IMG/VR virus record: IMGVR_UViG_2713896905_000004
Span: 31,599 to 95,598 of that record
Length of the DNA: 64,000 nucleotides
Direction: 5' to 3' (one strand)
Source of the DNA: a virus
Taxonomy: Duplodnaviria; Heunggongvirae; Uroviricota; Caudoviricetes
The notes under the pieces are model-generated. The model was not told the DNA's origin, searched no databases, and saw only the letters and a program-made list of their open reading frames with translations. Numbering within the stretch: the first letter of the stretch is position 1; each line of letters opens with the position of its first letter. Below are positions 6,388 through 19,976 of the stretch, in pieces. The position numbers and the translations under genes are program-made.

Positions 6388-6948
6388 TTAGTGCATGACG
6401 TTTGCCATCTCGTAAGCATCAGCCAGCAACTCCATCTCTGACTTGTTCAGCAAGGTGAATTCTTTCTTGCCTCCAACCACACCATCGGCATGAACAGGGA
6501 CCAGCCAGGGGTATTTTGCTCTTACTTCAGCCGGTGCTGCATGCTGGTGGTGCCATCTACAAAGTGGCAATTGCTTTTTATGACAACCCGGCGCGGTACG
6601 ACCGGCGATATGGTGCAGAGACACCTCATTAGATATTACTCCATGCATATAGCAGGCAATGCAGGGGAGAGCGCCAAGAGCATTGGCGATGCGCCGTTCC
6701 TCCGCCGTTGGTGTTCTCCCCTTCAAGCCACGAGATTTTATTTTTACCGCGCTTTTCCGCGTTTTGCTGGCTGGTGGGCGTTCTTTCTGTTTAGCGATAC
6801 GGCGGTCGATAGTATCCCGCATTTTCTGATATTGAGATTCTCGCCAGACCGGATCAGCCAACTTCTCCCGTTGCCGAGCGATCGCTCGTTCTCTGGCAGC
6901 CTTCTGCCACTTACGGTGCTGTTCAATTTTTTGTTCGATTGTTTTCAT
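6388..6948 (-). CDS. ref: Ref-like recombination enhancement protein (HNH-type)
   Basis: 186 aa with Cys/His cluster CIACYMHG...HHIAGR...CHKKQLPLCRWHH; downstream of cre/cra as in P1. Confidence 0.75.
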   Translation of the reverse strand: MKTIEQKIEQHRKWQKAARERAIARQREKLADPVWRESQYQKMRDTIDRRIAKQKERPPASKTRKSAVKIKSRGLKGRTPTAEERRIANALGALPCIACYMHGVISNEVSLHHIAGRTAPGCHKKQLPLCRWHHQHAAPAEVRAKYPWLVPVHADGVVGGKKEFTLLNKSEMELLADAYEMANVMH

Positions 6949-9221: not shown

Positions 9222-9410
9222 TTTTCACCTCTGATTGATTGGTGGTGCTAAGCGCGCTACGCGAAATCTGGAGCACTAACTCTGCCAACTTTTCTCAGAT
9301 TTTACGTAGCGCAATCTTGATCAAATGATCAAGTGATCACTATTTAACCTGACAAGGTATTGAACTGTATGGATTTACAGGTAAATTGATCATGTTCAAT
9401 AACCCTTAAA

Positions 9411-9444
9411 ATAACTTCGTATAATGTATGCTATACGAAGTTAT
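9411..9444. other. loxP recombination site
   Basis: Exact ataacttcgtata-atgtatgc-tatacgaagttat (13-bp inverted repeats, 8-bp spacer). Confidence 0.97.
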
Positions 9445-17264: not shown

Positions 17265-17645
17265 CTACTCCGCAGAACCATACAATCTACGTAACGTGTC
17301 GGCGACAGAAGATACAGATATCTCGCCAGTCGCAGCGCCTACGGTAAGGTCTGCCAGTTCAGGTGAATCAAATACCTGCACCCCGTTACGGCGTAGAAAT
17401 AGCAGCGCACTGTTTAGCGCGGTACGCTTATTGGCATCATTGAATATATGCCCTCTCGCTGTAGCCACCAGGTAGGTGGCGGAGACTTCGAAAAGGTCGG
17501 TGATCTCTTCGTAGGCAACTCTGGCCTGAACTCTCCCGATAATGGCCTCTGCCCTACCCGGATCAGACATTCCCGGCAGGCCGCCGTAGCGGCTTATATT
17601 CGCATCATGAAGCGCAATAAGTTCTTCCGGTGATATATGCCTCAT
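17265..17645 (-). CDS. doc: Doc toxin (Fic-fold kinase)
   Basis: 126-aa protein recognised as P1 Doc. Confidence 0.92.
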
Positions 17646-17866
17646 TATCGGTTAACCAGTTCCTTGTTGGTGGAGTCCAGGGTGTCAAATAGGGATGCAA
17701 ATTCAGCATCCAGCGCCGCTTTTTTGTAGGCTTCGAAAGTAGCCTTGCTGACAATTACTGCTGGCTCACGGCCTCTGCGGGTGATTTCAACCTCTTCCCC
17801 GGCTTCAACATTGTTGAGCACTTCAGAAAGGTTGCCGCGCGCGGTACGGAAGTTAATGGATTGCAT
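17645..17866 (-). CDS. phd: Phd antitoxin
   Basis: 73 aa [39 protein letters not shown]...; overlaps the doc start. Confidence 0.9.
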
Positions 17867-17938
17867 AAACACCTCGTGTACTCGTTATGTGTACACAATT
17901 ATAAACTTCACAGGCATAAAGCACCAGCACTTTGCAGC

Positions 17939-18328
17939 TTAAATGACCGGACAATCATCAAACTCCCCACTCCGGGCATCATTGATGACATGAGTGATCA
18001 CACCAAAAACAGCATTACTACCTGTGTAACCATCGTCATCTACTGGTAACGCCTCTTTCTTCCCGGTGCTTAAATCCTCCAGGTGCTGGCGCGGATACTT
18101 TCGGTATCTCTTTATGCGATATTCACCCTCCATAGCGCACACAAGCAGAGAACCATCAACCGGAGTAAGCGAGGAATCAACCACCAGCAAAGCACCCTGC
18201 AATATTCCCTCACGGTGATGGCTATCAGCTGCCCGCATGAAGTAGGTTGCTGATGGATGCCTGATTAGTTGCTGATCAAGAGAAATTCGGCTTTCAACAT
18301 AATCCGCCGCAGGAGAAGGGAAGCCCAT
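17939..18328 (-). CDS. humD: UmuD-like protein HumD
   Basis: 129-aa peptidase S24 / UmuD'-like C-terminal domain. Confidence 0.8.
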   Translation of the reverse strand: MGFPSPAADYVESRISLDQQLIRHPSATYFMRAADSHHREGILQGALLVVDSSLTPVDGSLLVCAMEGEYRIKRYRKYPRQHLEDLSTGKKEALPVDDDGYTGSNAVFGVITHVINDARSGEFDDCPVI

Positions 18329-18347
18329 AGCGTTTTCACCTCAATAA

Positions 18348-18367
18348 TACTGTTCATTTATACAGTA
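18348..18367. promoter_or_regulatory. LexA (SOS) box
   Basis: tactgttcatttatacagta = CTGT-N8-ACAG palindrome between divergent humD and the 18503 gene. Confidence 0.65.
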
Positions 18368-18502
18368 TACATTAAAGAGACACCTTTGGCGCAAACGCGT
18401 TACGTACATCAACCACCGCTGATGATTTTGTGCTCTTTGCTACTATTCATCACCAACGGATCAGCGTAACCTCGTTGCCAATCAGTTAATAAGGAATTAG
18501 CT

Positions 18503-19087
18503 ATGCCTAATCGCATTCCTCTCGATCCTGTATTGCCCAAAAATTTTGACTGCACTCCTAACGAGAAACGCTCTAAAGCTCAGCTGGACGCCTGGTGGGA
18601 CCATCCCTATGGGGTTACAGAACATGACGGGAAAATTGTTGTTTATTGTCTGAATGGTGGCGCGTGGGACCGCCCATCCGTGCTTGGTTTGGCAAATAAC
18701 TATGATGAAGCCTGTGAACTTGCCGAAAGACAGCAGGCTAGATGGGTGAAAACACGGTCACAGCCGACATTCATGTTTTCAAAAGAACCGCCATTTATAC
18801 TGGCGAGGATGCCGCAGCGACCGGATCATCAACAAGAAATTGTTGCTGAATTTTCCTCAAGGGATGAGATGAATCTCTTCTCATTAAAGCAGGAAGAAAG
18901 GGAGCGCGTCGAAGTGTCTCCAACTCTCGACCACAACCGGATGAACCTGGCCCAACTCGCCTGGTACAGCAAAGAATTAGAGATGTCTATTGCCCGACTT
19001 GAAAACGAAAAAGCCGCTATCCAAGCCCAGCATGAAGTAGTTCTGAACCGGATTAGAGAAATGCAAAACGATAACAGGGGATTTTGA
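18503..19087 (+). CDS. hypothetical protein, likely SOS-regulated (lxr position)
   Basis: 194 aa with coiled-coil C-terminus; LexA box about 135 bp upstream. Confidence 0.55.
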   Translation: MPNRIPLDPVLPKNFDCTPNEKRSKAQLDAWWDHPYGVTEHDGKIVVYCLNGGAWDRPSVLGLANNYDEACELAERQQARWVKTRSQPTFMFSKEPPFILARMPQRPDHQQEIVAEFSSRDEMNLFSLKQEERERVEVSPTLDHNRMNLAQLAWYSKELEMSIARLENEKAAIQAQHEVVLNRIREMQNDNRGF

Positions 19088-19450
19088 ATGGCTAAAATCG
19101 AGTACCATCGCGATCGCGGTAATTACCTGGAAATATACGATCATGAATCTCTTAACGATATCAACGATGCGTTATATGAATACTGTGAAAAAACGAGCAT
19201 CACAGATGCACCTGATGCATTTGTCGAGCTACCGGTATATCTCCGCGACATCTATGCAATACGAACACCGCCCGTATCGGTGATCCACATTGGCTATGTC
19301 CGCCTGTCCATCGAAGAAGATGAAGATCGATATATCGTGCGCCACTATACATTGGACAGAAAAGAGCTTCCCAATGAATGGAACATGAGTAATTTCTACA
19401 ACGGTGAATATGGCTTAAAACCCGCTAAGAATGGCGCGGGCATTGCGTAA
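19088..19450 (+). CDS. hypothetical protein, coupled to the preceding gene
   Basis: Start ATG immediately follows the upstream TGA. Confidence 0.55.
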   Translation: MAKIEYHRDRGNYLEIYDHESLNDINDALYEYCEKTSITDAPDAFVELPVYLRDIYAIRTPPVSVIHIGYVRLSIEEDEDRYIVRHYTLDRKELPNEWNMSNFYNGEYGLKPAKNGAGIA

Positions 19451-19461
19451 TAGCCTAACAA

Positions 19462-19701
19462 CTATTCTGTTTTCTGATATGCCGGATCGTTCCCTTTTGG
19501 CAACTGGAGGCTTAACTGCCGATAGTGCCGTAACCGTTCCATGAAATAGGTGCGCAGATTCTCTGGTTGCTCGCGGGCTACCTGTTCAGCTATGACAGGT
19601 ATGTTCAATCGCTCTTTGTACGCCACACCGCTGGCAGCCAGATCAACGTTAACCTTATCCCGTTCTTCCTGACTTTTAGCTGCAATATTCCAGTCGCTCA
19701 T
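19462..19701 (-). CDS. hot: DNA polymerase III theta subunit homolog (Hot)
   Basis: 79 aa with [33 protein letters not shown] resembling E. coli HolE. Confidence 0.8.
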
Positions 19702-19703
19702 AT

Positions 19704-19976
19704 TTAAGGCTCACATTTCCAGATGGTATTCTGAACACCCGAACCGGGCGCAAGATTAGGGTTAGCGTTCGCGCTATGCTGATATACTGCTTTAGACTTC
19801 CCATATTGCTGACAGGCTTTATCTGCGGTTTTTTGCAGGCTATCCAGGCCATACCAACCATCTGACTGTATGCTTACCTTTTCACCGTCGTTGTATTGCA
19901 CCATTGCACACCCAGATATAGCCAGTATCGCGCCGACAATAACGCTTTTCCATAAAACTCTATGCAACATATACAA
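19704..19976 (-). CDS. small lipoprotein
   Basis: Signal peptide with lipobox ILAISGC. Confidence 0.5.

Follow-up and report, generated by a model that had tools for sequence, protein, structure and literature searches.

Divergent genes that share one LexA box exist, as in the uvrA-ssb pair of E. coli, whose promoters have been mapped. Two further SOS operators that are of interest for the locus described here belong to mucAB (TACTGTATAAATAAACAGTT) and umuDC (TACTGTATATAAAAACAGTA). The closest described relatives of the locus itself are found in the phages P1 and P7. The P1 record (NC_005856) lists humD (gp103), a LexA site at 87545-87564, lxr (gp102) and hot (gp101); it describes the site as 'LexA binding site in the regulatory region of lxr and humD' and annotates gp102 as lxr, 'LexA regulated function'. 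In the P7 record (AF503408) humD, the LexA site, upf94.2 and upf93.6 are annotated. As far as the possible roles of the gene products are concerned, the leading-region or establishment genes of conjugative plasmids, namely ardA/B/C, psiB and ssb (PMC11541004), are also a useful reference.

The humD-lxr region in the window and in P1 and P7

The stretch of DNA that was analysed, 64 kb long and called the window below, is a P1-like phage-plasmid, and the locus under study is its humD-lxr region, which is of the P1/P7 type. The megablast comparison gave 97.7% DNA identity to P7 across humD, the box and both ORFs, and 99% identity to P1, split in two pieces. On the minus strand, humD (17939-18328) encodes a UmuD'-like protein of 129 aa, which is 99-100% identical to the HumD proteins of P1 and P7, matches Pfam Peptidase_S24 (5.7e-09) and belongs to PHROG 811, UmuD-like. 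The phd-doc addiction module (17265-17872) is located directly downstream of humD on the same strand, with doc at 17265-17645 and phd ending at 17872, both as in the P1 and P7 annotation. A divergent intergenic region of 174 bp (18329-18502) separates humD from ORF1 (18503-19087, 194 aa) and ORF2 (19088-19450, 120 aa), which are both on the plus strand. The minus-strand gene hot (19462-19701), a homologue of the DNA polymerase III theta subunit (Pfam DNA_pol3_theta, 3.4e-34), is convergent with ORF2 across a gap of 11 nt, and the terminator scan found no terminator-like site between the two.

The product of ORF1 is 98% identical to P1 Lxr over 189 aa, the N-terminal 132 residues being 100% identical, and falls into PHROG 6164 (2.6e-134); the gene has the same neighbours as in P1, between humD and hot, and corresponds to upf94.2 in P7. 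The product of ORF2 is 97% identical to P7 Upf93.6 over 115 aa, belongs to PHROG 5797 (1e-76) and is encoded at the same position directly after the lxr stop. P1 has the same genes in the same order and orientation, with the same 20-bp box at the same distance, but it is without ORF2: positions 19038-19470 of the window correspond to 65 nt in P1, and through this 65-nt replacement the last ~16 codons of P1 lxr differ, which gives a protein of 190 aa compared to 194 aa here. P7 has the same stop-start junction between the two genes; however, IS903 is found after upf93.6 and hot is missing there, whereas in the window hot comes 11 nt after ORF2.

Both ORFs are real genes, as indicated by the dN/dS of 0.08-0.2 for Lxr, the dN of 0.31 for ORF2 (with dS saturated) and the conserved homologues of both. 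The first-pass annotation had described them as coupled genes of 194 and 120 aa divergent from humD, and this agrees well with the junction: the ORF1 stop and the ORF2 start abut as TGAATG, and AGGGGA (19076-19081) lies 6 nt upstream of the ATG. ORF2 is thus probably translationally coupled to lxr. The same annotation had taken the two for a pair of unknown genes. This stands as far as function is concerned, since the searchable literature documents no function for either lxr or upf93.6. It does not stand for the genes themselves, because comparison with P1 places ORF1 at the known lxr locus and ORF2 is already P7 upf93.6. The GenBank records of P1 and P7 have for years contained the box, both genes and the idea of shared regulation, none of which is new; as a genome feature, the locus adds nothing to the existing P1/P7 annotation.

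The LexA box and its association with humD

The box TACTGTTCATTTATACAGTA (18348-18367), which is annotated as a LexA protein_bind feature in both P1 and P7, lies at a distance of 20 bp from the start codon of humD and 135 bp from that of ORF1, with the humD SD, GAGGTG, between the humD ATG and the box. Of its 20 positions, 17 agree with the consensus TACTGTATATATATACAGTA and the three mismatches all fall in the variable centre, while both half-sites are perfect (CTGT-N8-ACAG within TACTGT(AT)4ACAGTA), as in the operator palindrome of gammaproteobacterial LexA. The box is the sole match to TACTGT-N8-ACAGTA with at most one mismatch in the 64 kb, where 0.06 would be expected by chance, and CTGT-N8-ACAG itself occurs at 3 sites only. 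With an approximate heterology index of ~4.2 on the humD strand, the box ranks first among the sites of the window and scores about as well as the operators of recA, sulA and lexA; the index is home-made, its matrix having been rebuilt from 19 E. coli operators and not from the published table. The near-consensus SOS box that had been noticed between humD and the coupled pair is thus well confirmed and is unique in the 64 kb. We regard it as a strong predicted LexA operator next to humD. The searchable literature yielded no experiment on LexA binding or damage induction at the box. Read on the humD strand (TACTGTATAAATGAACAGTA), the box is close to the mucAB and umuDC operators, and each of these is immediately upstream of a UmuD-type gene. 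In contrast to umuDC and mucAB, humD lacks a umuC partner, and its product is a UmuD' that is truncated from the outset.

The association of the box with its two neighbours was examined in 74 lxr loci gathered from IMG/VR, from phage and plasmid collections and from metagenome assemblies. The box is present in all 57 loci with humD as the divergent neighbour, and the spacing between the box and the lxr ATG in them is always 152-154 nt. It was found in none of the 17 lxr loci without an adjacent humD, among which are one contig too short to show the box and one with humD elsewhere. The phages D6 and RCS47, which have humD and no lxr, both retain the box. Over the 59 humD loci (the 57 lxr loci together with D6 and RCS47) the half-sites CTGT-N8-ACAG are invariant, while 7 variants of the central 8 nt are found; half-sites that are kept while the centre drifts across relatives are what a LexA operator should display. 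We also scanned 500 nt upstream of 53 distant loci with the N-terminal domain of Lxr (Lxr-N) on plasmids, ICEs and other phage-plasmids for the gamma-type box and the alpha-type box (GAAC-N7-GAAC), and no LexA box was found at any of them. A CTGT-N8-ACAG sequence in locus L020 was dismissed as an lxr box, for it lies inside a coding region. E. albertii, Salmonella and Enterobacter have P1 relatives without humD, and in these the DNA upstream of lxr is unrelated to that of the window.

The presence of the box in 57 of 57 loci with humD and in 0 of 17 without it implies that the operator travels with humD. The box is evolutionarily locked to humD, and by the same comparison its adjacency to lxr appears as a property of the P1/P7 lineage only. 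Across lxr homologues the box is not a conserved upstream feature (0/17 and 0/53), and this weakens the earlier claim that it is 'driving' the two-gene operon. What follows is a correction of emphasis: the operator is humD's, and the lxr name 'LexA-regulated function' rests on adjacency alone.

As a predicted operator the box would serve humD in the first place; it sits over the likely promoter of this gene, 20 bp from the start codon. Two humD promoter candidates overlap the box, namely TTGCGC (18394-18389) and TATACT (18369-18364) with a spacer of 19, and TGTATA (18371-18366) and TATTAT (18349-18344) with a spacer of 16. For lxr, one candidate consists of ATAATA (18344) and TACATT (18368-18373) with a spacer of 18; its -10 abuts the box, so LexA would block it. 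The best plus-strand candidate is the extended -10 TGcTACTAT (18438-18446), which would not be blocked by LexA because it is located 75 nt downstream of the box. The strict scan found no sigma-70 promoter on the plus strand of the 174 bp, and the relaxed scan of this strand was no better than the shuffled controls (70% of the shuffles scored as well). Lpa-dependent transcription of lxr from a late promoter would also be conceivable. The P1 record predicts PhumD ~480 bp upstream, within lxr, in which case the box would be a roadblock and not a promoter-overlapping operator; PhumD as placed in that record was not recovered by our promoter scan. The 135-nt lxr leader has no Rfam match to a known RNA and no unusual fold (fold z-score of -1.3). 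In one relative the intergenic identity is high although Lxr is 79% identical, and this is due to a mosaic breakpoint within lxr rather than to selection on the leader.

The explanation that we favour, and hold to be moderately probable on the strength of these comparisons, is that the predicted LexA operator is owned by humD, that lxr-upf93.6 is dispensable cargo, and that the products of the two genes are likely binding proteins of mobile elements. The box resembles the operators of mucAB and umuDC, from which a gene of the UmuD' type would have acquired it. As long as the lysogen is undamaged, humD would be kept off by LexA, and the RecA-stimulated cleavage of LexA would turn humD on, possibly with read-through into phd-doc. 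The genes lxr and upf93.6 would be expressed as one translationally coupled unit, the promoter of which would have to fall within the shared 174 bp. We infer the binding of LexA, the positions of the promoters and the co-transcription of the two genes.

One would argue that a single LexA box represses both divergent promoters and that lxr-upf93.6 is an SOS-induced operon, as in uvrA-ssb, where likewise one box is found between divergent genes. This is quite conceivable, if somewhat doubtful. Upstream of lxr, non-coding DNA is limited to the 174 bp that this gene has in common with humD, the sole A+T-rich stretch of this region (18340-18380) surrounds the box, and the weak -10-like TACATT abuts it. 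Additionally, the spacing between the box and the lxr ATG is constant over the 57 loci, and the P1 record assigns the site to both lxr and humD. However, recent common descent is enough to account for the constant spacing, the identity among the relatives being 93-100% over humD, the intergenic region and the lxr 5' end. No plus-strand promoter rises above the shuffles and the best one is out of LexA's reach, while lxr homologues elsewhere never have a LexA box. The comparison with uvrA-ssb also has its limits, for the box here is 135 nt from lxr and the plus-strand promoters are only candidates. It is nevertheless possible that lxr is LexA-controlled as well within the P1/P7 lineage, since the strict co-occurrence of the box with humD is compatible with it. 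The suggestion of the first-pass annotation that one box co-regulates both transcripts therefore retains the backing of the P1 record, but it is weakened by the tracking of the box with humD and by the want of a plus-strand promoter above chance.

Lxr, Upf93.6 and the dispensability of the gene pair

The AlphaFold2 model of Lxr has a pLDDT of 88.9 over the full length and of 92.0 over the N-domain (residues 1-132). The predicted order of elements in Lxr-N (residues 1-131) is a helix, three strands, a helix, three strands and a helix. Residues 149-191 are modeled as one long helix, so that the 'coiled coil' noticed earlier in the 194-aa protein survives as a single long helix, and this helix could dimerise the protein. 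Lxr is acidic, with a pI of 5.6 for the full length and 5.4 for the N-domain, and the 120-aa product of ORF2 is acidic as well, with a pI of 4.8 and a net charge of -9. Neither Lxr nor ORF2 has a match in Pfam, NCBIfam or PADLOC; the domain libraries returned for both only PHROGs of unknown function and sub-threshold coiled-coil noise, and profile searches of PDB sequences gave nothing for either. Lxr-N has no structural relative among the solved structures. No invariant catalytic-type residue was found in Lxr-N. A near-invariant Cys is replaced in some Lxr-N members, and this speaks against its being catalytic. The name that PGAP (NCBI) gives to the Lxr family is 'DNA-binding protein', and the acidity of the protein sits badly with it.

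The first search with Lxr-N gave 119 clusters with 50-67% identity, reaching from Klebsiella and Pseudomonas to Bradyrhizobium and Burkholderia, and the number of cluster representatives matching at E<1e-3 is 475. The identity between the enterobacterial and the alphaproteobacterial members is 50-60%. The domain is found on 904 PLSDB plasmids, 564 of which are conjugative, and the exact Lxr protein of the window on 248 contigs. An N-terminal helical extension of ~55 aa that resembles PF20066 is present in 7 of 28 multidomain relatives, and some relatives have an uncharacterised C-terminal extension; no known domain was found fused to Lxr-N apart from this short PF20066-like motif and the C-terminal extension.

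The genomic neighbourhoods of Lxr-N are those of mobile elements. At the P. aeruginosa loci on plasmids of ~47 kb a 66-aa ORF is followed by Lxr-N and then by a serine resolvase, and proteins near-identical to this Lxr-N are found in E. coli, Salmonella, Brucella and Burkholderia. The homologue in Pseudomonas broad-host-range plasmids overlaps the start of the serine resolvase gene, and in Pseudomonas plasmids Lxr-N adjoins an ArdC-N protein. Other contexts are a replication and recombination module in Klebsiella phage-plasmids, IncFIB/HI1B plasmids and a Trb-type ICE. In the ICEs and plasmids of alphaproteobacteria the domain is accompanied by TraG, ArdC, WGR and PAPS-reductase-like genes.

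The homologues of ORF2 are limited to mobile elements of Enterobacterales. The exact protein of the window was found on at least 1000 contigs. In the P1-like elements of Salmonella ORF2 again follows lxr. In other Salmonella plasmids it follows unrelated ORFs of 81 and 320 aa near ccdAB, and in IncN plasmids a 38%-identical homologue is located after ssb and korA in the leading region, in both cases with no lxr. ORF2 is present at 38 of the 74 lxr loci and missing from the other 36. Since lxr without ORF2 and ORF2 without lxr both occur, the two are not obligate partners.

P1-like elements are known to vary in the hot-lxr region, where they carry cargo (PMC9603915). Some natural relatives have an lxr that breaks off after 28 codons or contains an IS, which fits dispensable cargo in such a region. 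In the P1 genome-wide CRISPRi screen both lxr and humD were non-essential (PMC10695390). These comparisons mark lxr-upf93.6 as a dispensable cargo cassette. The role in induction, mutagenesis or host takeover that the first-pass annotation had considered finds no support here: lxr is non-essential in that screen (PMC10695390) and is deleted or IS-disrupted in relatives.

Possible roles of Lxr and Upf93.6

The most likely role of Lxr and Upf93.6 is that of non-enzymatic binding proteins carried by mobile elements. The conserved N-domain of Lxr would consist of two three-strand-plus-helix units and would be followed by the possible dimerisation helix. Any biochemical role is something that we infer, and our best guess, made with low confidence, is that both proteins bind a conserved host factor of DNA metabolism or defence rather than DNA. 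The guess follows from the cross-phylum conservation of the domain, the acidity of both proteins, the possible dimerising helix and the mobile-element neighbours. If the PGAP name 'DNA-binding protein' has a basis, it contradicts this guess.

A different and rather tentative reading is that Lxr and Upf93.6 are establishment or anti-defence proteins, which would act against host restriction, defence or SOS, in a role like that of Ard, Psi or Ssb proteins, upon entry of the element into a cell or upon its induction. Homologues of Lxr-N and ORF2 occupy leading-region-type neighbourhoods on plasmids and ICEs, and they are small and acidic like the products of such genes. In the ICEs and plasmids of alphaproteobacteria the neighbours of Lxr-N include ArdC, WGR and TraG genes, in Pseudomonas plasmids an ArdC-N protein is encoded next to it, and the IncN homologue of ORF2 comes after ssb-korA in the leading region. 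The very high cross-phylum conservation would be expected for a protein with a conserved host target, and the placement in the variable hot-lxr cargo region of P1-like elements (PMC9603915) points the same way. All of this is, however, guilt by association: Lxr-N and ORF2 share neither sequence nor fold similarity with ardA/B/C, psiB and ssb, and no PADLOC, Pfam or NCBIfam model of the known systems was matched. Moreover, P1 does not enter the cell as single-stranded DNA, unlike conjugative plasmids, and the CRISPRi screen, done in one host, gave no phenotype (PMC10695390).

The PGAP name itself suggests another role, in which Lxr would bind DNA as a dimer and serve as a plasmid-type accessory factor in recombination, partition or transcription; DNA would be touched by the two three-strand-plus-helix units, and the long helix would dimerise the protein. 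The overlap of the homologue with the start of the serine resolvase gene in Pseudomonas broad-host-range plasmids would agree with this, and so would the PF20066-like N-terminal helical extension found in many relatives. We nevertheless consider it unlikely, because the protein is acidic (the N-domain has a pI of 5.4), no HTH or other recognised DNA-binding motif is found in it, and the link to the resolvase comes from a single plasmid family.

It is similarly improbable that Lxr-N binds a conserved host replication, repair or SOS protein and forms, together with Upf93.6, a damage-induced module that retunes DNA metabolism from the shared operator, although the 50-60% identity of Lxr-N from enterobacteria to rhizobia would fit a binder of an equally conserved host protein. 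The candidate targets would be RecA, the Pol III or Pol V machinery and SSB. In the P1/P7 lineage Lxr-N is encoded between hot, the theta homologue, and humD, the UmuD' homologue.

A two-gene toxin-antitoxin, abortive-infection or defence module beside phd-doc, which the small size and the translational coupling of the two genes, together with an addiction module nearby on a plasmid prophage, might suggest, is very improbable and was rejected as a toxin-antitoxin-type pair, since lxr and ORF2 occur independently (P1 and 36 of the 74 loci have lxr but no ORF2, IncN and Salmonella plasmids have ORF2 but no lxr), lxr is naturally disrupted where ORF2 is also missing, and neither PADLOC nor Pfam nor NCBIfam gave a match to a type II toxin-antitoxin or defence system.

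Whatever the products of this cargo cassette may do, Lxr-N represents a large family of strongly conserved and wholly uncharacterised proteins, which is spread over conjugative plasmids, ICEs and phage-plasmids. Its carriers include many clinical plasmids of Klebsiella, E. coli and Salmonella. P1 is easily handled and is therefore a convenient model for finding the function of the Lxr-N family.

Alleles and rearrangements of the lxr region

The comparison with P1 reveals a clean allelic replacement: 433 nt of the window (19038-19470), which span the end of lxr and the whole of ORF2, correspond to only 65 nt in the P1 GenBank record (L002 3639-3703). Both alleles are common, ORF2 being present in 38 of the 74 lxr loci and absent from the remaining 36.

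Disrupted copies of lxr, next to an intact humD and LexA box, were found in the IMG/VR P1-like contigs L138-L143 and L131. The deletion in L138, which was read directly, cuts lxr after 28 codons and extends to the next conserved gene, the truncation in L139-L143 is taken from a match to Lxr residues 1-28 only, and in L131 an IS3-type transposase interrupts the gene after about 72 codons. The lxr region is a rearrangement hot spot.

The predicted PhumD and a second LexA-like site

The P1 GenBank record contains a predicted PhumD that lies within lxr, some 480 bp upstream from humD (L002 3407-3433, equivalent to window 18806-18832 on the minus strand), which has a poor -10 element, CATCCT. This site inside lxr was not recovered by our promoter scans. 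The humD promoter candidates that overlap the LexA box (18348-18367) look more plausible than the PhumD of the P1 record.

The LexA-like site that ranks second in the window, AACTGTATGGATTTACAGGT (9363-9382), has an approximate heterology index of 8.9, the index being rebuilt from 19 E. coli operators, and lies about 30 bp from loxP (9411-9444). Its P1 counterpart is an annotated LexA site (nt 46-65) overlapping the promoter P2coi, and this LexA site is cited as connecting SOS with Coi-mediated induction (PMC4713147).

The hot side of the region

The lxr-ORF2 pair and hot are convergent, with stop codons only 11 nt apart (window 19450-19462), and no terminator-like hairpin was found between the ORF2 and hot stop codons. 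Transcripts of lxr-ORF2 or hot would run antisense into the opposite gene, in either direction. Directly upstream of hot lies a 90-aa ORF (19704-19976, minus strand; PHROG 7757, unknown function), whereas P1 carries upfO, upfN and upfM at this place. The signal-peptide-like N-terminus and the lipobox-like motif LAISGC of this ORF suggest that it may encode a small lipoprotein, possibly co-transcribed with hot.

Lxr homologues and cargo in other elements

A frameshifted Lxr homologue is found in the K. pneumoniae IncFIB/IncHI1B plasmid NZ_CP083048 (L019 6001-6571): its N-domain ORF stops at 6411, the coiled-coil part lies in another frame (6401-6571), and conserved residues are changed too (GGARDR versus the usual GGAWDR). 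Since an unbroken homologue of 199 aa is present elsewhere (P0038), the C-terminal helix of Lxr is not limited to P1-like elements.

The Pseudomonas aeruginosa plasmids of about 47 kb (L003-L006 7790-9040) harbor a tight unit of a 66-aa ORF, a 135-aa homologue of the N-terminal domain Lxr-N and a serine resolvase, the latter two genes overlapping by 4 nt. Divergent from this unit is a VbhA-Fic pair, which echoes the phd/doc-lxr neighbourhood of P1, Doc being a Fic family member. E. coli, Salmonella, Brucella, Burkholderia and Sphingobium also have proteins that are nearly identical.

Just past doc, a P1-like metagenome contig (L023 68-745) carries a dUTPase gene and a Tad2-like gene (PF11195, anti-Thoeris family), the latter an example of anti-defence cargo in this P1-like genome region.
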